From a virus: a stretch of DNA of 60,408 bases. Below are positions 1,612 to 59,141 of this stretch, piece by piece. The position numbers and the translations under genes were made by a program. How positions within the stretch are numbered: the stretch's first letter is position 1; each line of letters starts with the position of its first letter. Location of the stretch: positions 1 through 60,408 of IMG/VR virus record IMGVR_UViG_3300006198_000003. One strand, 5' to 3'. Below the pieces are notes generated by a model. That model did no database searches, had not been told where the DNA came from, and worked only from the letters and a program-made list of their open reading frames with translations.

Positions 1612-2049
1612 ATGGCTAATGTTGGCAGACCTCCAAAGTATAAAAGCAAGGAGGAAATTCAAGAGAAAATTGAACAATATTTCCAAGATTGCAAAGGGGA
1701 AATATTGAAAGATGATGAAGGAAATACAGTTTTTAATAAATTTGGAAATCCTATCATTGTTGGAGAAAAACCCTTGACTGTGACTGGACTTGCGCTTGCT
1801 TTGGGGTTTGCCAGTAGACAAGCACTACTAAACTATCAAGGGAAGAAAGAATTTAATGACACTATAACGCGCGCGAAGAGCGTTGTTGAGAAATATGCAG
1901 AAGAAAGACTTTTTGACCGTGACGGTTCAAACGGAGCGCAGTTCAGCCTAAGGAATAATTTTAAAGGTTGGGATGCGGATAAAGAAGAAACAGTAACGGA
2001 GGGAATAACCATTGTCAACAATATCCCAAAACCAAATACTGCTGACTGA
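1612..2049 (+). CDS. terS: terminase small subunit
   Basis: MANVGRPPKYKSKEEIQEKIEQYF...LTVTGLALALGF HTH typical of TerS; immediately upstream of and overlapping terL. Confidence 0.85.
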   Translation: MANVGRPPKYKSKEEIQEKIEQYFQDCKGEILKDDEGNTVFNKFGNPIIVGEKPLTVTGLALALGFASRQALLNYQGKKEFNDTITRAKSVVEKYAEERLFDRDGSNGAQFSLRNNFKGWDADKEETVTEGITIVNNIPKPNTAD

Positions 2050-3283
2050 CATAATCGCCCCGTCTTTCTATTCCGTTCACTGGGACATAGCGGAGGGCAA
2101 GCATACATATTACGACCTTTACGGCGGAAGAGGTAGTACGAAATCATCTTTCATATCCGTTGAGATAGTTTTGGGCATGATGCAAGATCCGCTCGCAAAT
2201 GCCATTGTATTCCGTAAATATGGCGTGACGCTTAGAGAATCAGTATTTGAGCAAATAGAATGGGCGATTGATGCTTTGGGAGTATCGGGCTTGTGGGCAG
2301 GATATACAAACCCCATGAGATTTGTTTACAAGCCGACAGGACAAAAGATTATCTTTCGAGGACTGGATAAAGCAAAGAAAACAAAGTCTATCAAGGTATC
2401 ACATGGATATTTTAAATATCTTTGGTTTGAGGAATTAGACGAGTTTGCCGGAATGGAAGAAATCCGTACAGTACAACAATCTGTACTCCGTGGCGGCGAG
2501 AAATTCATTGTATTTAAGAGTTTCAATCCACCAATCACAAATGCGAACTGGGCAAATCAGTATGTGAATGAGCCGCGTAACAATGCATTAAGACATAAAT
2601 CAGATTATACGACAGTGCCACAGGATTGGTTAGGACAGCAATTTATTGATGATGCTGAACACCTGGAAGCCACGAACCCCAAAGCCTATCAGCATGAGTA
2701 TTTGGGTATTCCTGTCGGACTTGGAACGAATATTTTTGAATTTCTGGAAATTCGGGAGATTACGGATGAAGAAATCAGACGGATGGACAGGCTGTATGCA
2801 GGGGTAGACTGGGGATGGTACCCTGACCCATATGCTTTTATCATGGACTATTACAATCCAAAGGAAGAAAAGATATACCTAATTGATGAAAACCGCAGGC
2901 AGAAGACAGCAAATAAAGATACTGCAAAATGGATATTGGATAATCATGGAAAGGACTTGCATGCAATGCTGTATGGAACAATCTGTGATAGCGCAGAACC
3001 TAAATCTATAGCTGACTATAGGGATTTAGGCGTGTGGAATGCAAAAGAAGCATATAAGCCGCCTGGGAGCGTGGAATATGGAATGAAATGGTTGCAGAGC
3101 AGAACAATAGTTATTGACCCGAAAAGGACTCCCCACGCACTAAAGGAAATAACGGAATATGAGTACGAGAGGGATAATGACGGGAATGTAATGTCTGGTT
3201 ATCCTGACCATGATAATCATTTTATAGATGCATTGCGTTACAGCTTATCACCTGTATTTATGCGGAGAATGACACAGGCATAA
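2012..3283 (+). CDS. terL: terminase large subunit (PBSX/Terminase_3 type)
   Basis: Walker A YGGRGSTKSS and WFEELDE Walker B-like motif; nuclease C-terminal half; TTG start overlaps the terS end. Confidence 0.95.
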   Translation: MSTISQNQILLTDIIAPSFYSVHWDIAEGKHTYYDLYGGRGSTKSSFISVEIVLGMMQDPLANAIVFRKYGVTLRESVFEQIEWAIDALGVSGLWAGYTNPMRFVYKPTGQKIIFRGLDKAKKTKSIKVSHGYFKYLWFEELDEFAGMEEIRTVQQSVLRGGEKFIVFKSFNPPITNANWANQYVNEPRNNALRHKSDYTTVPQDWLGQQFIDDAEHLEATNPKAYQHEYLGIPVGLGTNIFEFLEIREITDEEIRRMDRLYAGVDWGWYPDPYAFIMDYYNPKEEKIYLIDENRRQKTANKDTAKWILDNHGKDLHAMLYGTICDSAEPKSIADYRDLGVWNAKEAYKPPGSVEYGMKWLQSRTIVIDPKRTPHALKEITEYEYERDNDGNVMSGYPDHDNHFIDALRYSLSPVFMRRMTQA

Positions 3284-3524: not shown

Positions 3525-3559
3525 AGCATCTGCCAATGCGGTAAGGAGAGGATAGGGAA

Positions 3560-3763
3560 ATGAATTGGATATATGCAGGCAACATTGAAAGACCAAAGCA
3601 AGATGAAGAAGTGCTTTGTGATTTAGGAAAGGATTTTAATTTCGCTGTAATGGTTTATGATAAGGGAATTTTCTATGACACCAATATTGGAGAATATTAC
3701 AATCTTGGAACTGATATAAAAAGATGGTGTCATATTGGAAAGCATTATGATGAGCAGTTTTGA
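3560..3763 (+). CDS. hypothetical protein (DUF551-like)
   Basis: RBS GGAGAGGA. The pattern W..a......P..DEEVLC is reminiscent of DUF551. Confidence 0.4.
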   Translation: MNWIYAGNIERPKQDEEVLCDLGKDFNFAVMVYDKGIFYDTNIGEYYNLGTDIKRWCHIGKHYDEQF

Positions 3764-4320: not shown

Positions 4321-6060
4321 ACCTTAATCCGTGAAACTCAAACTTGTTAAATGCCTGAAAAGTCTGCGATTATGCAGTTTTGAAGAGCCAAACCAGCACC
4401 TTAAAATTCACCCATTTGGTGCGGCAAAATGGCTTAATTTTCCCACTTTTGCATTATTTTCTGGTATAATAGGGACAGCAGAAATCATAACGCGGGGGGC
4501 GGACACCAATGAAAAATATTAAGATCGAATTCACCAATGAGCGTATTATCCCGGCTTCAGGACTGGCAGTCGTAGGTGCCATCCTGGGCAAGAGCGATTT
4601 CGTAAAACGCTGCAACCGTATGGATGTCACAAAGAACCGTTCACAGCACCAGATTAAAAATGGTGACATCCTCCTTACATATATCGGTCTGCTGACTATG
4701 GGTAAACCTGCTTACGAGTCCGTCCATGAGTTTGATGATGACCAGGAGTTTTATAAGTATGCCCTTGGCATCACCAGGAGCATCCCTTCCGAGGAGACAT
4801 TACGCCAGCGGATGGATGACATTGGTGCTTCCCTGCGCCCCCAGATCCTTTCCGAGAACATAGAGATGCTCAGGACAAACGGTATTGTCCCGGGGAAGCT
4901 TCCAAACGGCTATGTTCCTGTGGATATTGATGTCACGCCTTTTGACAATTCAAAAACGCAGAAACAGGGAGTCTCGCGAACTTATAAAGGCTGCGACGGG
5001 TATGCGCCCATCATGGCATATATAGGAACCGAAGGCTACCTCATCAACTGTGAGCTGCGCGAGGGGAAGCAGCACTGCCAGAAGCATACACCGGAATTTT
5101 TGCGTGAAACGATACGTTTATGCCGCGAGATCACAAATGAACCTCTCCTTGTACGCCTAGACTCCGGGAACGATGCCGCGGAAAACATCGGCATACTGAT
5201 TGAAGCCGGATGCTGTTTCATCATAAAGCGGAACCTCCGCAGGGAAAGCAGGGAGGAATGGCTTTCCATGGCGGAATCCTGCAGCAAGGATGTCCAGACC
5301 CCCCGGGACGGCAAGACTGTCTATATAGGAAGCGACTGGAAGCCCGTCACATATAAAACACAATCCGGGGAAGAGAAAACCATTACCATCCGGACAGGAT
5401 ATGAGATTATCAACCGTACAATAGACAAGTATGGACAGTTTCTATTTCCAAATGACATCGAAGCCAACACCTGGTGGACCAACCTGGGGATGAACGACCA
5501 TGAGATCATCAGCCTGTACCATGCACATGGAGAATGCGAGCAGTTCCACAGTGAAATAAAAACAGACATGGACCTGGAACGTCTGCCGTCCGGTAAATTT
5601 GACACAAATGAGCTGGTGCTGGAGCTTGCTATAATTGCATACAATATCCTGCGCATGATAGGGCAGGAGTCCATAGGCCGCCGGGGGACGGAAACCAGAC
5701 ACAAGGTAAGGCGCCGTCGGCTGCGCACCGTGATCGGGAACATGATCATGATGGCGGGCCATGTGACAGAGCATGCCCGCCAGCTGATCATAGGGCTGGG
5801 CCGGAGCAACGTGTGGCGCTATGCATTCCAGGGAATATATACTGCATTTGCGGATTTCTATGCATAAATAAGCCTTCATACAGAAAACTTCCTGCATATA
5901 GGGGGAGTAGTGCGCCCATTTATAGGAAGATGGATAAGATTTAGCAGTATATTTCCACATTTATGCAGATTGATTCAACATTATCAAGGTACACTTTTTA
6001 CTTTTTGCCAATCTGATTGTAGATTGGCATATAAAAACAATGAGTTTCACGGATTCAGGT
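4321..6060 (+). mobile_element. IS1380-family insertion sequence (1740 bp)
   Basis: Terminal inverted repeats 4321-4340 / 6041-6060 match 19/20. 4-bp direct repeat GTTT at 4317-4320 and 6061-6064. Single DDE transposase ORF. By eye, GC content is higher than in the flanks. Confidence 0.9.
4509..5867 (+). CDS. IS1380-family DDE transposase
   Basis: N-terminus MKNIKIEFTNERIIPASGLAVVG, VRLDSGNDAAEN, YHAHGECEQFHSEIKTDMDLERLPSGKF...AYNILRMIG. Confidence 0.9.
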   Translation: MKNIKIEFTNERIIPASGLAVVGAILGKSDFVKRCNRMDVTKNRSQHQIKNGDILLTYIGLLTMGKPAYESVHEFDDDQEFYKYALGITRSIPSEETLRQRMDDIGASLRPQILSENIEMLRTNGIVPGKLPNGYVPVDIDVTPFDNSKTQKQGVSRTYKGCDGYAPIMAYIGTEGYLINCELREGKQHCQKHTPEFLRETIRLCREITNEPLLVRLDSGNDAAENIGILIEAGCCFIIKRNLRRESREEWLSMAESCSKDVQTPRDGKTVYIGSDWKPVTYKTQSGEEKTITIRTGYEIINRTIDKYGQFLFPNDIEANTWWTNLGMNDHEIISLYHAHGECEQFHSEIKTDMDLERLPSGKFDTNELVLELAIIAYNILRMIGQESIGRRGTETRHKVRRRRLRTVIGNMIMMAGHVTEHARQLIIGLGRSNVWRYAFQGIYTAFADFYA

Positions 6061-6451: not shown

Positions 6452-7918
6452 ATGGGTTTAATCGCATGGTTTAAGGAGAAGATAAAGATGTTATTTAAAA
6501 CGGACGCTGAAAAGGCTTTCGGTGTGGAAACGTACTTGTCGCCGGAAATGGACGCTGCCATTAAGCTGTGGGGGCAGTTGGAGAGCGGCAAGCCGCCGTG
6601 GGTAAAGGACGATACCAGGACTATCCGATTTTCAAACACCGTTGCCCGGGAACTGGCTAAGCTGATTACACAGAACATTGACATTAAGGTGCAGTCAAAG
6701 TATGGAACCGGAGAAACCGCCAAGAGAATCCAGAAAGCCATTGATGATTATTTCTTGAAGAATGCCCAGCGAATTATGCAAGATGTGATTATGTTGGGCG
6801 GCTCTATGGCGAAATGGAACGGTAAAGGCATGGACTACATACCGCCGGATCGGTTTCTTGTGACTGAATTTGACAGTAATGGGGAAGTGACCGGGGCGAT
6901 ATTTTTCTCATACTACCAGAAAGAAAAGAAATTCTACACACGGGCAGAATGGCACAGGTTCGAGGACGGAGAACGCCGGGACAAAGCCGGGGAAATGGTA
7001 TCAGTCCGCAGGTATAGAGTGTCTAACAAAGCGTTTGTTTCTGATAACCAGGACGAAATCGGCAGACCGACAGACCTAAAAAACACAAAGTGGGCTGATA
7101 TTGTGCCGGAGTTTACAGCAGAAAACCTTGAAAAACCTTTGTTCGTGTACATAAAGAACCCATACAGCAACACCATAGACCCGGACAGCCCATTGGGGGT
7201 ATCGTGCTTTAGCGAGTGCGTAGAGGAACTGCGCTGGCTGGATATTGCAATGTCCACGCTGGGGGTGGAAACAGAGGATTCCGAGCCAAAAATGATAATC
7301 GGTCAATCTGCGATACAGTATGCAGAAGCGAACGGAATCGAACTTCCACGAATGGTGCTCAAGACTGGACTGGACGATATGACAGACAAGCCATTTGAGC
7401 AGTGGCAGCCAACGCTACAAGTTGCGAGCCGGACAGACGGAATAAATTTCCTTCTCTCTATTATTTCTTACAAGACCGGGTTTGACTCTGGATATTTCGT
7501 CTTTAACGGTCAGACTATTTCCGTTGCTACTGCTACCCAAGTAGAAGCCACGGAACGGCGCACCATTAATACCGTTGGGGATTACCGGGACATTCTATCA
7601 TGCCCTGACAGCAACGGAGACGGGCGTATAGGGGCGATTCATGACATAGCCTATATAATGGACGCTATGGCCGTTATCAACGGGGAATCGGCTCCTAGTG
7701 AGTTTGGGAACTATGAAATATATGCTGACTTTGCAGACCTCACAAGAAACGCCGAGGAAGACCGGTCAAGGGCATTGCTACTGACGGACAAGGGATTTTA
7801 TCCTAAGTGGTATTATTTGGTACATAACGAAGGGTTTACAGAAGAAGCGGCGCGGGCTATTGTGGCAGAAGCCAAGAGCGAGAATGAGCCGAAAGAGGGA
7901 TTGTTTGGGGAGGAGTAG
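6452..7918 (+). CDS. portal protein
   Basis: 488 aa, positioned between terL and the MuF-like gene; acidic C-terminus; SPP1 gp6-like size and synteny. Confidence 0.85.
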   Translation: MGLIAWFKEKIKMLFKTDAEKAFGVETYLSPEMDAAIKLWGQLESGKPPWVKDDTRTIRFSNTVARELAKLITQNIDIKVQSKYGTGETAKRIQKAIDDYFLKNAQRIMQDVIMLGGSMAKWNGKGMDYIPPDRFLVTEFDSNGEVTGAIFFSYYQKEKKFYTRAEWHRFEDGERRDKAGEMVSVRRYRVSNKAFVSDNQDEIGRPTDLKNTKWADIVPEFTAENLEKPLFVYIKNPYSNTIDPDSPLGVSCFSECVEELRWLDIAMSTLGVETEDSEPKMIIGQSAIQYAEANGIELPRMVLKTGLDDMTDKPFEQWQPTLQVASRTDGINFLLSIISYKTGFDSGYFVFNGQTISVATATQVEATERRTINTVGDYRDILSCPDSNGDGRIGAIHDIAYIMDAMAVINGESAPSEFGNYEIYADFADLTRNAEEDRSRALLLTDKGFYPKWYYLVHNEGFTEEAARAIVAEAKSENEPKEGLFGEE

Positions 7919-8600: not shown

Positions 8601-8915
8601 ATGGCTTGGTATGCGGAGTTAAAGCGTAGAAAGTGGTATTGTATCAATGGTATTGATATGATACACGCTTACAAGAAAAAGCTGTATGATGATTGGTACA
8701 ACTCTCTGACAGACGAGCAGAAACAGCGATTAGAGGAATACAGAAAAGAAAAGGCGGAGAAAAACCGAAGGGAAGCACGAGAAGCCATGCAAAGATTGTT
8801 GATGATGACTGGATTAGTCGCAGAAAAGTATTATTCGGTGTGCGGAGAATCTTCCTTTCTTGCCGTTGAAAATTCTTTAGGGGGTTGCCGTGCTATCACC
8901 AGATTACTTCAATAA
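8601..8915 (+). CDS. hypothetical protein
   Basis: 104-aa ORF in the head module, coiled-coil/charged. Confidence 0.45.
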   Translation: MAWYAELKRRKWYCINGIDMIHAYKKKLYDDWYNSLTDEQKQRLEEYRKEKAEKNRREAREAMQRLLMMTGLVAEKYYSVCGESSFLAVENSLGGCRAITRLLQ

Positions 8916-10611
8916 CATAGATGACCGCCTACTTGAATTATACCGCCAGTTAGAGGACTTCATTCTCAAAGACATCACCCGCCGCCTACTCTCCGCCGGA
9001 GAAATGACCGCAACCGCCGACCGACTTATTTGGAAGTTGAAGCAGATGGGAGAGAGCCAAGCGGCGATTGAACAGAAATTACAAAAGCTAACAGGACTGA
9101 CAAGAAAAGAACTCCGCTCCCTCCTGCAAGATGCCGTTCTGACCTCATGGGAGGACGATAGAGCGACTTTAGGGCAGTTGGGTATAGAATTATCCAATCC
9201 GCTCAAAAATGCCGCTGTAATCCGTGTTATGGACGCAGAATATAAGAAAAGCCTTGGAGAACTGACGAACCTCACACGCACAACTATGAAGCAAAGTCAG
9301 ATTGACCTTATCAATATGCTTGACGAAGCTGATTTGAGGGTGGCGGCAGGAGTGCAAAGCTATTCAGCGGCGGTGTGTGATATTTTGGATAGGTATGCTG
9401 GACGGGGAATCTATGTGGACTATCCGAGCGGCGCAAGACGCACATTGGAATCGGCGGTTAGATTGTGCGTTGTCACATCAATGAATCAGACGGCGGCGCA
9501 AGTGACGAATCAGTACATAGTTGAGGGTGGAATTGAGTATGTCCTTGTATCGGCTCATTTAGGGGCGAGAGTGGCGCAGAAAGGACAGCCGCAAGAAGCG
9601 GACCATTCAGCATGGCAAGGGAGAGTCTATAAAATCCGAGGGACCACACCGGAATACCCTAATTTACTGGACCGGACCGGCTATGATGTGGACCCGAACA
9701 CTGGACAAGGGACCGTTAAAAATCCGCTGGGCCTGCACGGGTACAACTGCCGACACTCACATAAACCGTGGGACCCACGTTTGCGCAATCCATATGTTGA
9801 TGAAAATGGAAATCTGAAAATAGACAGTGAGGAGAACAGAAAACGCTACGAGCTTCAGCAGAAACAGCGTGCTATGGAACGGAGCCTGCGGGCATGGAAA
9901 CGAAAGTTGATTGAAAAGCAGGAGCAAATCAACAATCCCCGTGAAGATATGGACGTTTCCAAGCTGCAACAAGAATATGACCGCATGGCCTACCAACTGA
10001 CACAGAAAAATAAGGCGTACAACGATTTCTGCAAACAGAATGATTTGCAGCCGCAGTATGACCGCATAAAGGTAGCTGATTTCGGCAGGGAGCAGACAAA
10101 GCGGAGTAATGCAGGGGCAAAAAGGTATAAAAGTATTGAAAATTCTGCGGATTCTGATACAATAAAGGCAGGAGTTAAAAGTGGCGCCCTAACAAGCAAA
10201 AATGACCCTGATTTTAAGAAACGTGATTCATTTGCGGAAATGTATTATCGTGAAGTTCTTGGAAGAAAACGCGAGTATGAAATAAAAGCTGTGGCAAAGA
10301 ACAGCGGCTTTTCAGCAGAAGATATAGACAAAGTATTCTCCCACGTTTTTGAGAAGAAGCATCTATTTTCTGATGGAACAATACATAAGTTTTCCCCGGA
10401 CTATGATATGGCGCAGTCATGGATTCGATTGAGAGAGGGGAAACGTATTCAGGAGCATGACATCATTCTTTTGAATCATGAATTGATGGAAGCGAATATA
10501 ATGGGAAAAGGAACGGGCATTCCTTATGAAACAGCCCATGAAGAAGCGCAGAAACAGTATAATTATGCTGCAGCTCTTAAAAAATATCTGAAAGAAAATA
10601 ATTTGGAGTGA
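8890..10611 (+). CDS. MuF/SPP1 gp7-like head morphogenesis protein with C-terminal extension
   Basis: N-terminus MLSPDYFNNIDDRLLELYRQLEDFILKDITRRL (minor capsid protein 2 type) and GYNCRHSHKPW (MuF signature); about 190 extra C-terminal residues. Confidence 0.85.
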   Translation: MLSPDYFNNIDDRLLELYRQLEDFILKDITRRLLSAGEMTATADRLIWKLKQMGESQAAIEQKLQKLTGLTRKELRSLLQDAVLTSWEDDRATLGQLGIELSNPLKNAAVIRVMDAEYKKSLGELTNLTRTTMKQSQIDLINMLDEADLRVAAGVQSYSAAVCDILDRYAGRGIYVDYPSGARRTLESAVRLCVVTSMNQTAAQVTNQYIVEGGIEYVLVSAHLGARVAQKGQPQEADHSAWQGRVYKIRGTTPEYPNLLDRTGYDVDPNTGQGTVKNPLGLHGYNCRHSHKPWDPRLRNPYVDENGNLKIDSEENRKRYELQQKQRAMERSLRAWKRKLIEKQEQINNPREDMDVSKLQQEYDRMAYQLTQKNKAYNDFCKQNDLQPQYDRIKVADFGREQTKRSNAGAKRYKSIENSADSDTIKAGVKSGALTSKNDPDFKKRDSFAEMYYREVLGRKREYEIKAVAKNSGFSAEDIDKVFSHVFEKKHLFSDGTIHKFSPDYDMAQSWIRLREGKRIQEHDIILLNHELMEANIMGKGTGIPYETAHEEAQKQYNYAAALKKYLKENNLE

Positions 10612-11963: not shown

Positions 11964-12362
11964 ATGAAAAAAGCATATCCAGTTATTCTGTCACAAGGAG
12001 AAAAATTTATCGTGGCATATGTGCCGGATTTTGAAATCAATACACAAGGTACAGATGTTGCAGATGCAATCGAAATGGCAAGGGACGCAATAGGGGTTGT
12101 CGGCATTGATATGGAAGATGATGGAGAATCCTTACCAGAACCAACAGCAATTTCAGATGTAAAGGCTGATTCGACGGCGGATATTGTAACACTTGTTGAT
12201 GTGGACTTCGGAGAGTATCGCAGAAAGAACGATATGAGGGCGGTCAAGAAAAACTGCACAATACCGTCATGGTTGAATTTTGAAGCTGAAAAGGCGGGGG
12301 TGAATTTTTCTGCAATATTGACGGCGGCACTCAAAAGCGAGTTGAAAATTCAAAGCAGATAA
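11964..12362 (+). CDS. hicB: HicB antitoxin
   Basis: YPVILSQGEKFIVAYVPDFEINTQGTDVADAIEMARDAIG, the HicB N-domain pattern, directly downstream of hicA. Confidence 0.85.
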   Translation: MKKAYPVILSQGEKFIVAYVPDFEINTQGTDVADAIEMARDAIGVVGIDMEDDGESLPEPTAISDVKADSTADIVTLVDVDFGEYRRKNDMRAVKKNCTIPSWLNFEAEKAGVNFSAILTAALKSELKIQSR

Positions 12363-12637: not shown

Positions 12638-13240
12638 ACTCCGTACAAGATGAATGAACTTTCTGGATTGTTCTGTTTTACAGGATATGAAATTAGGGAA
12701 CGCGTCTTCGGAACCTGCACAGTCCTTGCAGACAGAAAATGGACATTGATCAGAATGCCGTTTGAAGTGGAGGGAACGCACGCCGCGTGATGGGCGGGTG
12801 TATGATTGTGAGTTTGGGAGCCAAAATAGCTTCGTGGGTTTTAACAATCAAAAATTAGAAGGAGGATACGGCCATGAAGAAGCGATGTTACAACCATGCT
12901 AACGTGATGGAAAATTTTGAAATCTGATCCGGCTGCGGCCCGTGGCGAATGAATCGCCAAACGTGGCATCATGTGAGATGAATCGCGGCTTTAAGAACAC
13001 GTTAAACTATGTAAGACCGCACTGCACAGCCCTTGCAGACATAAAATGGACAATCTACCTGAAGGAGACTTGAAGTCCTGCAATGCTATATAGTTTCCAA
13101 AAAACTTTATCTGTAATAGATGAGACTAGCCAGTGATTGCAGTAGTCTGGCAGTTACAGATAGTGCGCTGGAAGTGATGATCAGATTGTGAGCGTAGCGA
13201 AGCAATAATCAATCGAGGTAGTTTATAAGGCGCATATGGT
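12638..13240 (+). ncRNA. candidate large structured noncoding RNA (ROOL/GOLLD-like context; class unverified)
   Basis: No credible ORF; promoter motif upstream; runs into a tRNA-like element. Hand-verified nested helices at 13111-13159; 31-nt internal repeat at 12715 and 13022. Confidence 0.4.
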
Positions 13241-13316
13241 GGAAAGTTGTGTTATCTGGCGTGAAACTGCCGGGAGGCTAGCACCGGCGAGATAGGTTCG
13301 ATTCCTATACTTTCCA
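13241..13316 (+). ncRNA. tRNA-like element TL1 (10-nt anticodon-position loop)
   Basis: Acceptor GGAAAGT/ACTTTCC 7/7; T arm ATAGG-TTCGATT-CCTAT. Stem GCCGG/CCGGC closes the loop GAGGCTAGCA; weak 3-bp D stem. Confidence 0.55.
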
Positions 13317-13416
13317 TGCCTGGGAAGATACCACAAGAGAACTGGGTGTTGCAATCCGTCAAGAACGGTAAACGCAGGGGAGGTATCATTGGGGCGAGTG
13401 GTTATCGCTTCAAAAG

Positions 13417-13530
13417 CGGATAGTAGCTTAATGGTAGAGCCGGAGTAGGGGGCAATCCGAAACGAAAAGGAGTGCAAATATCCGTGGCTATAGTGTGCCT
13501 AATATGCAGGTTCGATTCCTGCCTATCCAT
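13417..13530 (+). ncRNA. tRNA-like element TL2 (114 nt, oversized anticodon/variable region)
   Basis: Acceptor CGGATAG/CTATCCA (C1-A72 mismatch), D arm GCTT-AATGGTA-GAGC, T arm GCAGG-TTCGATT-CCTGC; 72 nt lie between the D and T arms. Confidence 0.55.
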
Positions 13531-13587
13531 TTAACTCTGATAGGGGAGTTTTCTCTTGTCGGAAACCGCAAAAGGGAGGATATGAGA

Positions 13588-13869
13588 ATGGATAAAAATG
13601 ATTCACTTGGGATGTGCATAGCAAAAATAATTGGCTGTGTGATTTTAATATGCTTGATTGCATCATTCAGTCGTTCTTGCAGTAGAAGTGATAGGAGTAT
13701 GGTTTCTATCAAAGAGGGATATTGTTATGACTATGATACGCAAATAATTTATATCGAATCTTATACTGGAAGATATGGACTGGAAACAACATACACACCA
13801 TATTACAATTTTGACGGTGATTTATGCAAATATGATTTAGAATCGGGAAACTGGATTCCTATTGAGTGA
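13588..13869 (+). CDS. small membrane-anchored protein
   Basis: RBS GGGAGGA; MDKNDSLGMCIAKIIGCVILICLIASF is an N-terminal TM helix; Tyr-rich ectodomain. Confidence 0.6.
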   Translation: MDKNDSLGMCIAKIIGCVILICLIASFSRSCSRSDRSMVSIKEGYCYDYDTQIIYIESYTGRYGLETTYTPYYNFDGDLCKYDLESGNWIPIE

Positions 13870-13883
13870 TTTTAGCCTTTAAC

Positions 13884-13917
13884 TTGGTACAACAATCTCA
13901 CCAAACTGCGGTACAAT
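13884..13917 (+). promoter_or_regulatory. Conserved promoter-like motif copy P4
   Basis: TTGGTA 13884-13889, 22-nt spacer, TACAAT 13912-13917. Confidence 0.55.
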
Positions 13918-14069
13918 ATAAGCATAAAAGGCATTAGGAAATGGGCGCGACATAAGGTAAGACCGAAAAAGAAAGTAGGCACTGAATATAATCAAAGACA
14001 GGAACAAATGTGAAGCGTTTTCTGCGGTACTAATGCTTTTTATAAATGTAAATCGGGAGGGATATGGAA

Positions 14070-14495
14070 ATGAAGAAGAAAATTTCAGGTGCAATTTTGG
14101 TAGTGGTTTTATTGTTTTCTTTGACGAGTTGCGGAGAACAAGAGCAAGTTGATTTTCTGAATCAGCAGATTGCAGAGTTGCAAACTCAAAAATCATCTTT
14201 AGAGGTCGAAATTACAGACCTTGAAAATATGGTTGCGCAAAAGAAAGAGGAAAACGGAACAGCAAAATATATATTGACTTTAGAAATAAAACAGACTCAT
14301 TTTACTCTGAAAATATCTGAGCATTTGAAAGATGCTATGAATGCAATAGAGATTCAGATTCCAGTAGATAAAGAATATTATGATTCTGTGGAAGTCGGAC
14401 AAAATATTGCTGATGAATTCAGAATGGGAAGTCTTGTTTTTAAAGGAACATTTGGAAATTTCAAGGTTTCCGTAATTAAAAAAGAGATTCACTAA
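14070..14495 (+). CDS. lipoprotein with coiled-coil segment
   Basis: MKKKISGAILVVVLLFSLTSCGEQ is a signal peptide plus lipobox (LTSC); RBS GGGAGGG. Confidence 0.75.
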   Translation: MKKKISGAILVVVLLFSLTSCGEQEQVDFLNQQIAELQTQKSSLEVEITDLENMVAQKKEENGTAKYILTLEIKQTHFTLKISEHLKDAMNAIEIQIPVDKEYYDSVEVGQNIADEFRMGSLVFKGTFGNFKVSVIKKEIH

Positions 14496-14515
14496 TTTAA
14501 TATAGGAGAACAACC

Positions 14516-14683
14516 ATGACACAATACCAATGGGTACTCTGCCCCATCTGCGGAGGAAAAACCCGAACGAAAATCAGACCGGACACCGAGGCGAAAAACC
14601 TACCGATTTTGTGCCGGTTGTGCAAGAATGAGGTTGTAGTGGATATTGAAAAGGGAAAGGCGGTAAAGTCTGAAAATGCTTGA
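14516..14683 (+). CDS. cysteine-rich KTR domain protein (55 aa)
   Basis: MTQYQWVLCPICGGKTRTKIRPDTEAKNLPILCRLCKNEVVVDI matches the Clostridial Cys-rich KTR family pattern; RBS AGGAGAA. Confidence 0.7.
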   Translation: MTQYQWVLCPICGGKTRTKIRPDTEAKNLPILCRLCKNEVVVDIEKGKAVKSENA

Positions 14684-14915
14684 TATATGTTATGAGGAAT
14701 TGGACTATTTGAAAGAACATATAGACGAGGAAAAAGAGATACTCGGATATGACTTTCTTGATACATGGGATTTTGAAGATGAATATTCTCATAATCACAT
14801 TGAGGAAAACAGAAGCAAGTTTATACAGCTTGCCAATGAATATTTTAGAGAAAACAACTTGCCTTATGAAGCAAAAGAAACTTGTGAGAGGGCAAAGATA
14901 TTTGAAAAAAGATAG
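14676..14915 (+). CDS. hypothetical acidic protein
   Basis: 79-aa ORF overlapping the KTR gene stop. Confidence 0.45.
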   Translation: MLDICYEELDYLKEHIDEEKEILGYDFLDTWDFEDEYSHNHIEENRSKFIQLANEYFRENNLPYEAKETCERAKIFEKR

Positions 14916-14979
14916 AGCCAAGACGCATTGACGCAAGAGCCAGTAGATACGAGAAATCGTGTTTGCTGGCATTTTTATT

Positions 14980-15006
14980 TTGACATTATCTAATTTTTGA
15001 TAAATT
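14980..15006 (+). promoter_or_regulatory. sigma-A type promoter with extended -10 upstream of the tRNA-like cluster
   Basis: TTGACA 14980-14985, 15-nt spacer, TGaTAAATT 14998-15006. Confidence 0.5.
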
Positions 15007-15011
15007 TCCTA

Positions 15012-15030
15012 ACCCTCCTTTCAAGAGGGT
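15012..15030 (+). other. stand-alone anticodon-arm-like hairpin (loop CTTTCAA)
   Basis: ACCCTC/GAGGGT 6-bp stem and a 7-nt loop with U at position 2 and A at position 6; central triplet TTC. Confidence 0.5.
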
Positions 15031-15081
15031 GCATCCGTCAGTAATGGTGCTGTAAAGGCGGTTCGATTCCGCACTGGTGCA
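15031..15081 (+). ncRNA. tRNA-like element TL3 (51 nt, no anticodon arm)
   Basis: Acceptor GCATCCG/CTGGTGC (6/7 pairs), D-like hairpin CAG-TAATGGTG-CTG, T arm GGCGG-TTCGATT-CCGCA; nothing lies between the D and T arms. Confidence 0.45.
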
Positions 15082-15144
15082 TTTGGGGAGAAATCCCCAC
15101 ATTTCCCTATCAAGCGTCTGCCCCTTGTGGGTGGGCGCACTCCT

Positions 15145-15218
15145 GGGAGATTAAAGATAACTGGAAATCGCCTAGACTCCAAATCTACGGTACGAGGGTT
15201 CGATTCCTTCATCTCCTG
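15145..15218 (+). tRNA. tRNA-Trp (anticodon CCA), imperfect
   Basis: Acceptor GGGAGAT/ATCTCCT, anticodon arm CTAGA-CTCCAAA-TCTAC (C-C at 27-43), T arm GAGGG-TTCGATT-CCTTC, 3-bp D stem, one extra nt after the acceptor. Confidence 0.6.
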
Positions 15219-15237
15219 TTTGGCAGACGTGCCAAGT

Positions 15238-15354
15238 TCTTCATATCTGGTTCAAATCCAGTCGCCTTGATAGAAAAATCGTGATGCGCAGCGAAAGTAT
15301 CTTGAAAAGGTAGGGGCGTTGGCAGTAAGCGCGGTTCGATTCCGCTGTGAAGAA
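15238..15354 (+). ncRNA. tRNA-like element TL5 (117 nt, large internal insertion)
   Basis: Acceptor TCTTCAT/GTGAAGA 7/7 (one G-U), hairpin CTGG-TTCAAAT-CCAG at the D position, T arm CGCGG-TTCGATT-CCGCT; 69-nt middle with helix CGCCTT/GGGGCG. Confidence 0.5.
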
Positions 15355-15433
15355 TTACCCCGGCAGAGGTTCATCTGCCTAAATCCATACAGCGGACACG
15401 CTGTTAAAAACCATGTTAGGAGGATAACGAAAC

Positions 15434-16042
15434 ATGAAAAACATTGAACAGATTTTGAAAGAAGCAGGAATTGAGGTTACGGACGAGCAGAAAGCGGCGG
15501 TCAATGCTGCGGTGACGGAGAACTACAAGACCATTGCAGAGTTTGACAAGCAGGCTAAAAAGCTGACAGCAGCAGAAGCAGACCGGGACAATTACAAAGG
15601 GCAGCTTGACACAGCAAACGAAACCTTGGAGAAATTCAAGGACATTGACCCGGAGAAACAAGCAGAGGAAATCCAGAAGTATAAGCAGGCGGCGAAAGAA
15701 GCGCAGGACATGGCTACGAAGCAGATTCTGGAACGTGACCAGCGGGATTACCTCAAAGGCGAGTTTGACAAGCTGAAAATCGAATCGGGACGTGTCAGGG
15801 ATTCGCTCATGCGTGAAATCATGGGCGAGGACGGCTTGAAATGGAAGGACGGCGCATTTATGGGGCTGTCGGACTATCTGGCGAAGGAGAATGAAAAAGA
15901 CCACTTCTATCAGACCGAAGCTGAAAAAGCAGAAGCCGAAGCCAAAGAGAAAGCCGCCGGCAGTGCGCCGAAGTTTACGGACAAGTCCGAGCCGAAGCAG
16001 GCCCCGGCGAAAGATACCAGTCCGGCTCCTGTGATTTTCTAA
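15434..16042 (+). CDS. capsid scaffolding protein
   Basis: MKNIEQILKEAGIEVTDEQKAAVNAAVTENYKTIAEFDK, coiled-coil and charged, directly upstream of the major capsid gene. Confidence 0.85.
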   Translation: MKNIEQILKEAGIEVTDEQKAAVNAAVTENYKTIAEFDKQAKKLTAAEADRDNYKGQLDTANETLEKFKDIDPEKQAEEIQKYKQAAKEAQDMATKQILERDQRDYLKGEFDKLKIESGRVRDSLMREIMGEDGLKWKDGAFMGLSDYLAKENEKDHFYQTEAEKAEAEAKEKAAGSAPKFTDKSEPKQAPAKDTSPAPVIF

Positions 16043-16119
16043 ATCGAGTACCGGCTTACGTTTGAGTAATTTGCTGACCCACACACCTTTTAAAAATTAT
16101 GGGTAGAAAGGATTATTTT

Positions 16120-17082
16120 ATGGCTATTGATTCATTAAACATTACAAACCTTAAAGATTTATCCGGTACAGAAGAGGGTAAAATGCTTCTGGCGGAAGAA
16201 CAGAAAGGCATCATCGAAAATGTCGGAAGACGGACGATTTCAAGCCTTTTTAAGAACCAGAGACTCTCTGGCGATCCACAGGCAGGAACGCTTGTGGCGA
16301 AGAGATTTGCGTCCGCTAAAACAGAAGAATATGGCACGGCGAGAGCGGCAGGAAAAGGAAAGTCCATCAAGGGTATGCAGGTCCCTATCGACATTGACAT
16401 CGACAAGGAAATCATGGAAGAAGCAGAGGAAAAGGACATCCGCCTTGGAGGAATTCCGGGCCTGTTGTCTGATAGGAGAACAGCTATCACTCGTGCCATG
16501 GTTCGGGAACTGGACGAGAATTTCTTTCTTGTGGCTGTCGGAAAGCGCAAAGAGAGTGACGGCACTGTTGGAACGGTTGCCGGCGGTACAGAGGTCACGG
16601 TGTCCGGCGATACCATCAAAGACCGTGTAACGGCGGTAGTGATGAAGCTGCATACCACAAAGAATGAGTTCGTGGACGGCATCGAGAAAGAGGACATTCA
16701 TGTTGTCCTGTCCCCGGAAGCCTACGAGGAAATGCGGGACTACATCGACACAAAGGGAAACGCTAATGTCAAGACGGACGTTGCGGAGTTCGGACGGTAT
16801 CACGGCGCATGGATTTACTCCAATGTTCACCAGCCGGAGGGCGTTGAGATTATTGCTATGTGTACAGGAGCGATTGCGGAGCCGGTTATGGCAGACGAAT
16901 ACCAGGCAAAGCAGATTGAACTTTCCAATGCGTATGCAATCGGTATGTTCTTCCATTACGGTTGCAAGGTCGTTATGCCTGACCTGATTTTCTACAGCAA
17001 GAAACCGGGCGCGGCAAGTGCAAGCGAAACCGGAGAGGAATCTGGCGGCACGACAAGGGCAAAGAGTACGAAGCTGTCATAA
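16120..17082 (+). CDS. major capsid protein
   Basis: About 320 aa after the scaffold gene; RBS GAAAGGA before the ATG at 16120; size and synteny. Confidence 0.85.
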   Translation: MAIDSLNITNLKDLSGTEEGKMLLAEEQKGIIENVGRRTISSLFKNQRLSGDPQAGTLVAKRFASAKTEEYGTARAAGKGKSIKGMQVPIDIDIDKEIMEEAEEKDIRLGGIPGLLSDRRTAITRAMVRELDENFFLVAVGKRKESDGTVGTVAGGTEVTVSGDTIKDRVTAVVMKLHTTKNEFVDGIEKEDIHVVLSPEAYEEMRDYIDTKGNANVKTDVAEFGRYHGAWIYSNVHQPEGVEIIAMCTGAIAEPVMADEYQAKQIELSNAYAIGMFFHYGCKVVMPDLIFYSKKPGAASASETGEESGGTTRAKSTKLS

Positions 17083-17144: not shown

Positions 17145-17711
17145 ATGAAATTATTTTTTGATACAGAATTTACCGGACTGCACAAGAGAACTTCTCTTAT
17201 CAGTATCGGGATTGTTACGGAGAATGGTAAGCGGTTCTATGCGGAGTTTTCCACATACAAAGAAAACCAGTGTGACGATTGGATAAGGGAAAATGTTTTG
17301 AAGCACACCATTATTTCCGGAAATGATACCCTTGCCGCAAGGCTTGGAGAGGACAGCAACACAACGGTTGTTCTTGGCAGTAAAGCGGATATTCGGTATG
17401 AGTTGGGCGAGTGGCTGAAACAGTTCGACAGCGTTCAGTTCGTGTCCGATGTAAGCCATTATGACTTTATTCTGCTGATTGATATTTTCGGCACAGCGTT
17501 TGACTTGCCGGGGAATGTGTCGGCGGCTTGCCACGACATCAATCAGGACATTTCAAGACATTATGGAATTTCCGAAAGAGAAGCCTTTGATAAGAGCAGG
17601 GAGGACATTGTTTCCGAACTTTGCGGACAGCAGATTGAGGGAGAGAAACACAACGCCCTTTATGACGCAGAAGTTATCAAGGCTATCTATGCGGAAGTAT
17701 GCAAGGGGTAG
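17145..17711 (+). CDS. DEDDh 3'-5' exonuclease (DnaQ/Rv2179c-like)
   Basis: MKLFFDTEFTGL (Exo I DxE), HYDFILL, HNALYDAEV (Exo III HxxxD). Confidence 0.8.
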   Translation: MKLFFDTEFTGLHKRTSLISIGIVTENGKRFYAEFSTYKENQCDDWIRENVLKHTIISGNDTLAARLGEDSNTTVVLGSKADIRYELGEWLKQFDSVQFVSDVSHYDFILLIDIFGTAFDLPGNVSAACHDINQDISRHYGISEREAFDKSREDIVSELCGQQIEGEKHNALYDAEVIKAIYAEVCKG

Positions 17712-43158: not shown

Positions 43159-43186
43159 CAATCAGGTTCGAATCCTGTCACCCCGA
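43159..43186 (+). other. attP core: 3' fragment of a tRNA gene
   Basis: CAGG-TTCGAAT-CCTG T-arm followed by acceptor strand CACCCCGA; no matching 5' half upstream. Confidence 0.65.
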
Positions 43187-43198
43187 TTGATGTATTAT

Positions 43199-43331: not shown

Positions 43332-44327
43332 CTAATTAAAGAGGGCGTTCCGCAGCTTGTCGGCAGCGTCCCTCTTAGCCTTTTCCTCTTTCTCCATCAT
43401 GGAGTGCCGGTATACGGATTTCATCACATGGTCCGTCTCCCAACCGCCCATTTTAAGGATATCCGCCTCCGGTATCCCCATGGCTGACATTTGGCTTGCA
43501 AAGTAATGCCGGAGCTTGTGGAGCGGAAAGCGCGGGATCCCTAGCCTTTCCTCGACTTTCTCTAGGTGCTTTGTTATGCTGCCAGGGTGTCCCTTGTACA
43601 CATACCCCTGCTCACGTATTTGTTCGGACAGTGCTTCAGGTATGATGATGCTCCGAGTACTTTCAGTGGTCTTTGTAGTTTTGACTACCCACTCTTTCTT
43701 TGCGTTTTGCACCATGGCCTTGCTGATATGTGCGATATCCCCGTCAATATCTTCCGGTTGCAGCGCGCATATCTCTGATCGGCGCATTCCATAGCAGGCC
43801 AGAGTAATCGGAACCTCAAACGGTGTGTCCTTTACTTCTGCCAGTATCCTCTTTACATCCTCCTGAGAGGGCGTGTAAGGCTCAGATTTGACCTTTTGAG
43901 GGAGTGTGGTACTGACTTTAAGGTTCGGGCAAAAAGTCCCCAGAACAGCCGTCAAAAAGCCGTGGTAGTTGCGCACGGTCTTTGGGGACTTGCCTTTTGA
44001 TATCTCATTGACCAGCTTGTTGATTTCTATTTGTGTGATATCAGATACCGGGAGTTTCCGGAACCATTCAGGGAAGCGGTTCACATTTTCGAAGTATTCT
44101 TTTATCGTCCTGGGGGACAGGACATTTCTTTTCATGTCCACATAGCTTTCGGCAGCACGCTGGAATGTCATCTGGGTATTTGCATTCCTTATCCGTTCTA
44201 ATTCCTTCGCCATGGCAGTTATGGCCTCTTTCTGCGTGGGCTTATAATCAAAAGTCACGGTATAAATCTGCCCCTTGTACATTTTTCTGACCCGGTAGCT
44301 GTCAGGCCCTCTCTTTTCAATCTTCAT
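43332..44327 (-). CDS. int: tyrosine site-specific integrase
   Basis: ACYGMRRSE...LHKLRHYFASQM...GGWETDHVMKSVYRH gives the R...HxxR...Y catalytic pattern. SAM-like N-terminal domain. Confidence 0.95.
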   Translation of the reverse strand: MKIEKRGPDSYRVRKMYKGQIYTVTFDYKPTQKEAITAMAKELERIRNANTQMTFQRAAESYVDMKRNVLSPRTIKEYFENVNRFPEWFRKLPVSDITQIEINKLVNEISKGKSPKTVRNYHGFLTAVLGTFCPNLKVSTTLPQKVKSEPYTPSQEDVKRILAEVKDTPFEVPITLACYGMRRSEICALQPEDIDGDIAHISKAMVQNAKKEWVVKTTKTTESTRSIIIPEALSEQIREQGYVYKGHPGSITKHLEKVEERLGIPRFPLHKLRHYFASQMSAMGIPEADILKMGGWETDHVMKSVYRHSMMEKEEKAKRDAADKLRNALFN

Positions 44328-53756: not shown

Positions 53757-53759
53757 GAG

Positions 53760-58688: not shown

Positions 58689-59141
58689 ATGTGCAGAAAA
58701 TGCCACACCTGCCTATGCCGGACATGCTTGAATGTATGCAAATGCGAGGGTTGCACAGGGAAGAAAGAATCCTGCGAAAGATACAGCGGTTTCAGGCAGC
58801 TTAGTATTTTCGATACGCCCCAGGAGCCGCAGTACCATTCAGTCCCCCGGCACTCATGGCAGCATTACGGAATCAGAAAAGAGCGGTACAGGCAATTAAC
58901 AGAGTACGTACAGTCCGGCAGATATGCCTCTGTGGTGCGCCAGGCGGCTCATACAGCCAATGAAACCATTGCAGAGTACATTTTACTGTCTGTCACTCAA
59001 AACAAGTCTTATGACGCTCTTAGAGTGAAATGGGAGCTGAAAGAAATGGAGCGGATTCCGTACTGCCGGACGGATTTTTATGGGATCAGGAGATATTTTT
59101 TTAGTATTTTTAACAAAAAAATGAAGGAGATAGGGAAATGA
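58689..59141 (+). CDS. Cys-rich protein with possible C-terminal HTH (candidate late regulator)
   Basis: N-terminus MCRKCHTCLCRTCLNVCKCEGC. C-terminus IAEYILLSVTQNKSYDALRV...CRTDFYGIRRYFF is reminiscent of ArpU/sigma region-4-like activators. Confidence 0.35.
   Translation: MCRKCHTCLCRTCLNVCKCEGCTGKKESCERYSGFRQLSIFDTPQEPQYHSVPRHSWQHYGIRKERYRQLTEYVQSGRYASVVRQAAHTANETIAEYILLSVTQNKSYDALRVKWELKEMERIPYCRTDFYGIRRYFFSIFNKKMKEIGK

Follow-up and report, generated by a model that had tools for sequence, protein, structure and literature searches.

What might a phage gain from a row of tRNA-like structures, only one of which is a plausible decoder, placed directly in front of its capsid genes? The question is raised by IMG/VR record IMGVR_UViG_3300006198_000003, a stretch of viral DNA of 60,408 nucleotides (nt) that was analyzed as a whole and is called the window here. 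Upstream of its scaffold and major capsid genes, a first-pass annotation had noted a small 5' hairpin, an element without an anticodon arm (TL3), a hairpin of 10 base pairs (bp), a tRNA-Trp, and a 117-nt tRNA-like element (TL5), and all five were recovered in place. The array does lie between a promoter-like site and the scaffold gene, as had been proposed, but it is not peculiar to this phage: it is one version of a modular leader common to approximately 30 relatives. With moderate confidence, we interpret it as a punctuated leader, in which the modules would be excised, the tRNA-Trp would be used, TL3 and TL5 would serve as cut signals, and the last cut would free the capsid mRNA.

The segment from 14980 to 15433 appears to be the transcribed leader of the scaffold/capsid (head) operon, whose features all lie on the + strand. 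The protein-coding cargo of its transcript consists of the scaffold gene (15434-16042, +; PHROG head scaffolding protein, 8.9e-18; Pfam Phage_scaffold, 1.8e-14) and the major capsid gene (16099-17082, +). An intrinsic-terminator-like hairpin at 14939-14970 (14 pairs and then a T-run, found by a terminator scan) is kept in relatives and closes the upstream unit. It is followed by a promoter-like site of the extended -10 type at 14980-15006 (TTGACA-N15-TAAATT with an upstream TG, TG-n-TAAATT), likewise kept in relatives. The TTGACA and extended -10 sequences described in the first-pass annotation are present, but their 15-nt spacer is noncanonical, and a consensus scan with 16- to 18-nt spacers made no call at this site. 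Transcription from it would probably start at approximately position 15012. As had been stated, no terminator-like site separates the array from the scaffold gene on the + strand from 14971 onward, and the T-arm 11-mer GGTTCGATTCC occurs in exactly five copies on that strand, in line with the five modules counted earlier. With one mismatch allowed, it has 7 matches compared with 1.0 expected, a number reached in 0 of 100 shuffles. The leader's coding potential is limited to short, nonconserved open reading frames (ORFs). A permissive Rfam scan (E<=10) of positions 12800-15700 returned three tRNA matches, one chance match to a small nucleolar RNA, and nothing else, and ARAGORN called no tRNA anywhere in the window. 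A long-range pairing between 15005-15013 and the ribosome-binding site (RBS) of the scaffold gene, seen in the minimum free energy (MFE) fold, was rejected because relatives do not keep its 5' partner, which is probably located before the start of transcription.

To place the array among its relatives, we aligned the region upstream of the scaffold gene in approximately 30 independent contigs and prophages (designated by L numbers); a pattern scan of metagenomes was too degenerate, with true relatives making up 13 of its 117 matches. The alignment reveals a fixed frame, composed of the terminator and promoter, a 5' hairpin abutting the next element, TL3, and the motif CAUUUCCCUAUC with a 10-bp hairpin, and resuming with a 5' untranslated region (UTR) made of (U/C)UACC, two hairpins, UUAAAA, and the RBS. 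TL3 and the 10-bp hairpin are separated by a stem-closed insert of highly variable size, and a cargo slot separates this hairpin from the 5' UTR. In most relatives, this slot holds one or two ordinary tRNAs (Rfam, 57 to 72 bits) specific for Ile-UAU, Gln-UUG, Pro-UGG, Tyr-GUA, Ser-UGA, Ser-GCU, Ala-UGC, or Thr-CGU, and sometimes it holds irregular tRNA-like elements of 41 to approximately 160 nt; in the window, L031, L152, and L160, it holds the Trp element and TL5.

The boundary between this slot and the capsid mRNA follows a rule. The 5' UTR of the scaffold/capsid mRNA (15355-15433) comprises UUACC, hairpin 1 (15362-15379), hairpin 2 (15390-15403), UUAAAAA, and the Shine-Dalgarno (SD) sequence AGGAGG (15418-15423). 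In a MAFFT alignment of 18 variants, which is free of model bias, its hairpins are 96.5% paired, with 25 cells changed on both sides, and 0 of 500 shuffles reach their covariation score. Directly before the (U/C)UACC-hairpin, a T arm, a 7-nt acceptor strand, and a discriminator stand in exact register in 22 of 23 distinct junctions, whether the abutting element is a canonical tRNA, a 41-nt minihelix (L106), TL3, TL5, or an element of 136 to 162 nt (L099 and L002). The discriminator is followed by UU in 41 of 58 cases and by CU in 9 of 58, and no element encodes CCA. All three modules of the window have a U at position -1, and each of their predicted 3' cuts has a hairpin 2 to 7 nt downstream (at 15084, 15220, and 15362). 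What all modules keep is the portion of a tRNA recognized by processing enzymes: a 12-bp acceptor/T-arm helix, the T loop, usually U at -1, and a discriminator followed by UU without CCA, the anticodon arm being kept in only some modules. The anatomy and conservation are firm, and the covariation and the junction rule are shown.

Two further observations concern these leaders. A motif, UAGCGGAAKGCUG...AAGGNCCGUCANNAGGNCCGGU, recurs in the capsid-operon leaders of the distant relatives L073 (approximately 266-310 of the - strand leader), L080, and L129; in L080 it stands immediately upstream of UUACC in place of the tRNA-like module, and it has no Rfam match. In L007, the upstream terminator and the leader promoter are separated by an inserted DNA methyltransferase-like ORF (946-1670), so that the terminator/promoter boundary is also an insertion hotspot.

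TL3 (15031-15081, +) is a 51-nt, nondecoding tRNA "top half," recognized by comparison among relatives and by a covariance model, R1. It consists of an 8-bp acceptor stem, a 3-bp D-like stem with the loop UAAUGGUG, a UAAAG linker, a 4-bp T stem with the loop UUCGAUU, and A73, with no encoded CCA. The D-like hairpin leads through the linker to the T arm, which bears out the earlier view that an anticodon arm is missing; TL3 has no Rfam match, and the tRNA model RF00005 is negative even at E<=10. The acceptor stem contains one C6.U67 mismatch in the window and is perfect in relatives, pair 3-70 is A3-U70 and not G3:U70, and U4.G69 is present. The acceptor/T branch may be divided into 8 and 4 bp or into 7 and 5 bp with a G49.A65 mismatch. 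It reads best as 8+4, because U8 pairs with A65 and both A65-to-G variants give U.G: U8-A65 is kept in 21 of 23 aligned sequences, the variant L120 has U.G, and L124, which stands outside this alignment, likewise has U8.G65 (L007 has G8.A65).

Model R1, built from twelve 51-nt variants, matches TL3 in approximately 30 related loci at 25.9 to 85.4 bits. There is one copy per locus, always at the same position and at 56 to 85 bits, except for one contig with two copies, and the model also detects the diverged 66- to 67-nt forms of L016 and L017 (26 to 32 bits), which keep the architecture with wholly different acceptor sequences. The 23-sequence alignment (A2), itself fitted to the model, has 96.8% of its cells paired and changes on both sides at six pairs (e.g., G7-C66 to A-U in L008 and L047), a score reached by 0 of 500 shuffles. 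The D-like loop keeps UAAUGG, its GG being nearly invariant, as is the T loop (UUCGAUU or UUCAAUU). TL3 is 94 to 98% identical to most close relatives, 86 to 92% to three, and 61% to the insertion-bearing L146 copy; the capsid gene is 82 to 88% identical in most loci holding it and 95% in two. TL3 is under selection. Its longer forms (L146, L016, L017, L124, and L080) carry an extra inner hairpin whose 4- to 7-nt loops are unrelated in sequence, and hence none of them has an anticodon. At the other extreme are the minimal leaders of L016 and L026/L028, which precede scaffold genes of different sequence and in which TL3 is the sole module, directly before the UUACC-hairpin.

Upstream of TL3, a 6-bp hairpin with the loop CUUUCAA (15012-15030, +; fold of -7.8 kcal/mol) directly abuts G1 of the element. 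Its stem covaries in relatives (ACCCUC/GAGGGU, ACCUU/AAGGU, ACCUC/GAGGU, and UCCUCC/GGAGGU). The stem and the 7-nt loop are as first described, but the loop cannot be called anticodon-like: it varies from 4 to 7 nt among relatives and has no conserved anticodon-like sequence (e.g., CUAA, CCAA, and UCUGU). The 5' strand of the hairpin, CCUCCUUUC, resembles the 3' end of 16S rRNA, and the 3' strand is SD-like. The predicted first transcribed nucleotides, (A)CCCUCCUUUC (15012-15024), mimic the anti-SD sequence, and CACCUCCUUUC occupies their position in the leaders of the distant relatives L080, L124, and L129. This anti-SD-like hairpin could be a stabilizer or an element that sequesters the RBS.

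Downstream of TL3, a hairpin with a GAAA tetraloop begins after 2 nt (15084-15099, +, by folding); its slot is replaceable, and relatives carry other stem-closed inserts of 20 to 90 nt there. Next comes a conserved block at 15100-15144 (+), consisting of CAUUUCCCUAUCAA, the 10-bp hairpin (15114-15138), and ACUCCU, the leader of the first cargo tRNA. The block is 91 to 100% identical in most close relatives and 82 to 84% in three, and the segment 15082-15144 folds with a z score of -3.46. The 10-bp hairpin, already noted in the first pass and confirmed by folding, is stable, has compensatory variants in L120 (GCUC/GAGU) and L105 (U-A for G.U), and contains G.U pairs; together with U4.G69 of TL3, these pairs indicate that the folds form only in + strand RNA. 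We also observed that CAUUUCCCUAUC (15100-15111) is perfectly complementary over 12 nt to GAUAGGGAAAUG at 3551-3562 and 59129-59140, a sequence that in both places runs across the spacer and the AUG with which a small or medium ORF starts (3560-3763 and 59138-59893). For the 63-nt query, approximately 0.2 matches of this length are expected, and the complementarity could be chance arising from similar RBS contexts or a hint of regulation in trans.

The first occupant of the cargo slot is a tRNA-Trp(CCA) of an unusual phage type (15145-15218, +), which scores 32.8 bits with RF00005, above the gathering score of 29 but the lowest among the tRNAs of these arrays (57 to 72 bits in relatives). ARAGORN did not call it, because the extra nucleotide is not accepted. 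The element is odd in several respects: its D stem, AGAU/AUCG, is preceded by a 3-nt linker (UAA); A10.G25 and C27.C43 are mismatched, the latter having been noticed before as a C-C mismatch in the anticodon stem of a near-canonical tRNA; and the acceptor end has G1.U72, G73, and no CCA. The anticodon loop, CUCCAAA, is regular, with 7 nt, U33, a purine at position 37, and the anticodon CCA, and the discriminator is G73. The annotated tRNA-Trp of Bacillus phage G, with which the element shares 82% identity, has the same linker and D stem and a pyrimidine-pyrimidine 27.43 pair. Compensatory changes at 4-69, 29-41, 31-39, and 50-64 distinguish the two within their acceptor, anticodon, and T stems; in L160, A10.G25 is replaced by U10.G25. 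These shared oddities and stem-preserving changes uphold the earlier view of this element as the only plausible decoder of the array, and rather than a pseudogene it is most likely a functional tRNA-Trp from an unusual phage lineage.

The second occupant, TL5 (15238-15354, +), is a nondecoding, tRNA-framed element of 117 nt, defined by sequence and fold. It is separated from the tRNA-Trp by a 6-bp hairpin, UUGGCA-GACG-UGCCAA (15220-15235, +; seen in the sequence and in the fold of the whole leader), which starts 2 nt after the tRNA and stops 2 nt before TL5. The acceptor, the T-loop-like hairpin, the T arm, and the large insert first reported for TL5 were all found again; the acceptor pairing extends over 8 bp (UCUUCAUA/UGUGAAGA). 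Near the 5' end is the T-arm-like hairpin CUGG-UUCAAAU-CCAG, followed by UCGCCUUG, a structured insert of approximately 60 nt, a 4-bp T arm identical to that of TL3, and A73 without CCA, after which comes UUACC. No predicted helix has a 7-nt loop of the anticodon type, the single-sequence fold is not significant (z = -1.34), and TL5 has no Rfam match, RF00005 being negative at E<=10. Near-identical copies occur in L031, L152, and L160, always together with the Trp gene; a degenerate pattern scan of IMG/VR recovered only the near-identical copies in L031 and L160, with one substitution. Within TL5, the segment CUGGUUCAAAUCCAG+UCGCCUU+G resembles the 3' end of another tRNA, similar to the Gln tRNAs in the last slot of relatives, and L152 holds a chimeric tRNA-like element (2268-2373) in which the T arm is present twice and GGGAGCACG is duplicated internally. 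The chimera indicates that tRNA-tRNA rearrangements occur in the arrays of these phages. Because of the inner segment and the chimera, TL5 is probably to be read as a rearranged tRNA derivative that kept a usable frame.

How could these parts work together? The conserved portions of the modules, the 12-bp acceptor/T helix and the elbow, are what RNase P, RNase Z, and the CCA-adding enzyme recognize, and all three accept substrates without D and anticodon arms. We propose that host RNase P would cut the 5' side of every module and that RNase Z would cut after every discriminator. The excised tRNA-Trp would become a working tRNA after CCA addition, and TL3 and TL5, as nondecoding elements, would act mainly as cleavage signals, or "t-elements." The last RNase Z cut, after TL5, would leave the capsid mRNA with a mature 5' end 7 nt ahead of the conserved hairpin at 15362-15379, which would shield this end from 5'-end-dependent decay, and intermediates would be protected in the same manner by the hairpins that follow the other cut sites after 2 nt. 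The middle slot would be a site for exchangeable tRNA cargo, filled in the window phage by the Trp + TL5 cassette. Processing by RNase P and RNase Z fits the comparative data, including the t-element placement, with a tRNA-like acceptor/T structure right at the edge of a functional RNA in 22 of the 23 junctions. Precedents are known: the substrates of RNase P extend beyond tRNAs to phage RNAs and mRNAs, among others (PMC11143913), tRNA-like t-elements set mRNA ends in plant mitochondria (PMC1920247), and 5'-terminal stem-loops stabilize bacterial mRNA (PMC3997798, reference 95 there).

Several points weigh against this proposal. Transcription from the promoter and its start, the cleavages, and the stabilizing effect are all inferred. 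The MFE structure from RNAfold does not contain the tRNA-like fold of TL3, which sits 3.3 kcal/mol above it, so that the support for this fold is comparative and not thermodynamic; the z scores of single elements are weak (-0.9 to -1.8). Most of the covariation comes from few lineages and the alignment behind it is model-fitted; we regard it as solid but not overwhelming evidence. TL3 is absent from L002/L003/L006, L018, and L129, and its acceptor stem is damaged in L153, L154, and, slightly, the window, so that it is not indispensable. The 5' hairpin abuts G1 of TL3 without a single-stranded leader and may hinder RNase P. Finally, a role as a cut signal alone leaves the presence of TL3 in minimal leaders unexplained, where transcription could simply start at the protective hairpin. 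This leaves room for an action of TL3 in trans and, mainly in the case of TL5, for plain evolutionary debris.

In one rival reading, which is unlikely in our estimation, TL3 and TL5 would be tRNA pseudogenes, decaying or rearranged, within a tRNA island prone to recombination; they would lack any function themselves, and only the tRNA-Trp would matter. The slot turns over fast among relatives, and irregular or chimeric elements are common in these leaders, as illustrated by the double T arm of L152, the odd anticodon arms of L007/L120/L129, and the tRNA-like elements of 109 to 162 nt in L002, L036, L073, and L099. The apparent tRNA 3' end inside TL5, the damaged TL3 acceptors, and the leaders that lack TL3 also point that way. 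Against this reading, TL3 is more conserved than the neighboring capsid gene in most relatives, shows compensatory changes, keeps its architecture with a different sequence in phages whose capsid is 63 to 66% identical, and is the sole element of minimal leaders. Even in aberrant elements, the T arm and acceptor strand are kept, and their register with the 5' UTR remains exact.

Less likely still is that TL3, and with it the inserts of TL5 and of TL2 (13417-13530, from a first tRNA-like cluster farther upstream), accumulate late in infection after processing and CCA addition and act in trans. They might be decoys or sponges for host factors that read the acceptor end or elbow of tRNAs, such as processing enzymes and tRNA-end-modifying toxins, or, alternatively, tRNA-scaffolded regulatory RNAs. 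TL3 is conserved beyond what a cut site needs, with a nearly invariant GG in its D-like loop and a nearly invariant T loop, and it persists in leaders without cargo tRNA; TL5, TL2, and elements of several relatives have large inserts in place of the anticodon arm, and inserts are likewise carried by an artificial tRNA scaffold for RNA expression (PMC3753655). A viral precedent exists in murine gammaherpesvirus 68 (MHV68), whose non-aminoacylated tRNA-like RNAs, followed by hairpins, are cut by tRNase Z (PMC4838037, PMC3534370). However, the inserts are not conserved between relatives, and those of TL5 and TL2 have no antisense target above chance in the phage genome, the longest complementarity to either strand being 10 to 11 nt compared with approximately 11.5 nt by chance. 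No partner protein was identified, abundance and binding are presumed, and TL3 has neither the G3:U70 identity element of alanyl-tRNA synthetase nor a long variable arm. More doubtful again is a specific form of this idea, according to which TL3 would be a dedicated "anticodon-less tRNA," abundant along with the capsid mRNA and acting in trans after RNase P/Z processing and CCA addition. As a decoy, it might then draw off host immunity or toxins by which tRNA acceptor ends are sensed or modified, or it might titrate tRNA-processing or CCA-adding enzymes, and elements of the TL5 type would be natural tRNA scaffolds carrying other small RNAs. If this were true, TL3 would represent a new class of phage RNA for counter-defense or host takeover.

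That the array contains unconventional decoders is highly improbable. The 5' hairpin and TL3 would have to form a split or permuted tRNA, or TL5 and TL3 would have to be exotic tRNAs, such as suppressors or relatives of the (8/4) allo-tRNAs. It is true that (8/4) tRNAs occur in phages and rumen Clostridia, that polycistrons of irregular tRNAs have been reported (PMC5389517), and that the 7 nt of the hairpin loop, CUUUCAA, include U at position 2. But this loop is not conserved in size or sequence, the hairpin sits 5' of the acceptor strand with no pairing that joins it to the TL3 core, the inner hairpins of longer TL3 forms have unrelated loops, and TL5 offers no anticodon-type loop; the Rfam tRNA model, as mentioned above, misses both elements. 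The least probable of all is an element that acts at the DNA level, such as an integration or recombination site derived from tRNA gene fragments, or a transfer-messenger RNA (tmRNA)-like gene: temperate phages often carry tRNA 3' fragments as their attachment site (attP), the cargo slot is bordered by conserved inverted repeats, and the L002-type element has a short ORF starting at GCA, but a separate tRNA 3' fragment beside the integrase gene (43161-43190) is the likely attP, TL3, Trp, and TL5 stay internal in prophages, approximately 1 kb upstream of the capsid gene and not at a boundary, the conserved G.U pairs make the folds strand specific and place them at the RNA level, and ARAGORN and Rfam find no tmRNA in the window, nor does ARAGORN in 27 leaders. 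The 140-nt L002-type element was itself rejected as a tmRNA, its GCA-initiated ORF of 15 codons not being conserved with the spacer ORF of L151 and G3:U70 being absent. The split or exotic decoder, attP, and tmRNA readings are contradicted by the data.

If the punctuated leader is real, a widespread group of gut Lachnospiraceae phages would build their most highly expressed mRNA by tRNA-style punctuation, and a conserved tRNA "top half" that gave up decoding would be the bacterial-virus counterpart of mitochondrial t-elements and mascRNA. It would also provide a reason for the presence of tRNA genes immediately upstream of capsid genes and would reveal a natural plug-in site for tRNA cargo. 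Such elements are missed or half-detected by tRNA finders, and phage annotations will ignore them or mislabel them as pseudo-tRNAs. In practical terms, the 51-nt TL3 module could serve as a processing tag in the synthetic biology of Firmicutes/Clostridia.

The genome in which this leader resides is that of a temperate phage of mouse-gut Lachnospiraceae. The first 63 nt of the window are repeated at its end (1-63 and 60346-60408), which identifies it as a circularly assembled genome of 60,345 bp and not a linear fragment. The capsid relatives are prophages of mouse-gut Lachnospiraceae, in metagenome-assembled genomes assigned to Hungatella and Acetatifactor and in cultured MGBC isolates, as well as IMG/VR and metagenome contigs. 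Two cultured isolates with close relatives are "Clostridia bacterium B62_62_CS_H" (MGBC000121), which has locus L152 and with it the same Trp + TL5 cassette, and Lachnospiraceae bacterium JLR.KK009 (CP143549), which has L158. A tyrosine integrase gene lies at 43332-44327 (-; Pfam Phage_integrase, 1.3e-12), and 140 nt from it, at 43161-43190 (+), AATCAGGTTCGAATCCTGTCACCCCGA resembles a tRNA 3' end in having a T arm, an acceptor strand, and a discriminator. Integration into a tRNA gene of the host probably uses this fragment as the attP core, and the fragment accounts for the extra near-match to the T-arm 11-mer. The packaging and head genes include the large terminase (2012-3283), a presumed portal gene without a Pfam match that was assigned from position only (6452-7918), and a minor head protein gene (8890-10611). 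Between terminase and portal, an ORF of 452 amino acids at 4509-5867 (+) encodes a DDE transposase (Pfam DDE_Tnp_1_4, 1.6e-31) and not a terminase; it appears to be an insertion sequence within the packaging module. Directly after the capsid gene, a gene resembling DEDDh 3'-5' exoribonucleases (17145-17711, +; Pfam Rv2179c-like, 1.5e-10, and RNase_T, 7.4e-07) has the PHROG label "RNase H"; by tblastn, it is present behind the capsid gene in L152, L150, L153, L019, and L014 and not in other relatives, and a link of its product to the 3' trimming of tRNA-like RNAs is conceivable. In or beside the replication-gene region (52872-55577), the 21-nt unit AAATCCTGCGGAAATAAGAGT is repeated three times in tandem (53306-53370), and these units may be origin iterons.

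The first tRNA-like cluster belongs to a long noncoding stretch (12900-13540) that reaches from upstream of TL1 through TL2. TL1 (13241-13316) has a 10-nt "anticodon" loop containing CUA, and TL2 has a C1.A72 mismatch and a 61-nt insert. This cluster is as variable as the second, because the "long tRNA" matches in L151 and L152 are unrelated to TL2 in sequence. Within the same stretch, 13069-13176 is 87% identical to Blautia phage Montmirail, where the match falls in an annotated "hypothetical protein." A HicB-like antitoxin gene (11964-12362, +; PHROG, 3e-35) lies approximately 1 kb upstream of the cluster, and irregular tRNA polycistrons have been reported beside toxin-antitoxin genes (PMC5389517).

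Which known systems does the array resemble? With canonical tRNAs, TL3 and TL5 share the 12-bp coaxial acceptor/T helix (8+4) and the T-loop consensus; neither has an anticodon arm with a 7-nt loop, and neither is matched by RF00005 at E<=10. The 8/4 division that is favored for the 12-bp branch of TL3 characterizes the (8/4) tRNAs and allo-tRNAs of Mukai et al. (2017), found in phages and rumen Clostridia together with arrays of irregular tRNA-like sequences of possibly regulatory function (PMC5389517). These keep an anticodon arm and usually a long variable arm, whereas TL3 has neither and TL5 has a large insert without an anticodon-type loop. The tRNA-like domain of tmRNA, with its acceptor stem, T arm, D-loop analogue, and a replaced body without an anticodon arm, is likewise similar in outline, but the tag reading frame, the pseudoknots, and G3:U70 are not found in TL3/TL5 (A3-U70 in TL3), and tmRNA models are negative. 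Bacterial Y RNA/YrlA has no Rfam match at E<=10 in 12800-15700, and the acceptor ends of TL3 and TL5 are open.

A further parallel is offered by systems in which tRNAs or tRNA-like structures are cut from longer transcripts. In bacteria, the E. coli thrU-tyrU-glyT-thrT-tufB operon has tRNAs upstream of an mRNA in one transcript, from which RNase P cuts them out, and the tRNA cluster of T4 includes the stable RNAs C and D, which are small and tRNA-like. The M3 and C4 RNAs of phages are non-tRNA substrates of RNase P (PMC11143913). These co-transcripts differ from the array in that they have no conserved 51-nt module without an anticodon arm as a constant of a capsid leader and no exchangeable cargo slot framed by conserved hairpins. 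In mascRNA/MALAT1 and in the TMER units of MHV68, non-aminoacylated tRNA-like RNAs with a reduced or useless anticodon arm are released from a longer transcript by RNase P and/or tRNase Z, the functional product being the remainder of that transcript, and in MHV68 the tRNA-like part is followed by hairpins, as in the array (PMC4838037, PMC3534370). They are, however, eukaryotic or herpesviral, are made by RNA polymerase II or III, have no sequence relation to the array, and yield a long noncoding RNA or microRNAs downstream, compared with an mRNA for structural proteins here. In the tRNA punctuation and t-elements of plant mitochondria, tRNA-like structures within polycistronic transcripts allow RNase P/Z to set mRNA ends (PMC1920247), and 22 of 23 junctions in the phage leaders place this geometry right against the capsid 5' UTR. 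Those t-elements are organellar, whereas the array belongs to a bacteriophage of Firmicutes, in which the corresponding cleavages are predicted; it also mixes genuine cargo tRNAs with nondecoding modules and has a hairpin after each predicted cut. A full-text search of the literature returned no description of a conserved module without an anticodon arm in phage capsid leaders. By analogy, the array would work like t-elements, mascRNA, the viral tRNA-like units of MHV68, and tRNA-mRNA co-transcripts, yet it belongs to none of these families: the principle of tRNA-like cut signals is known, and its use in a capsid leader would be a moderately new twist.

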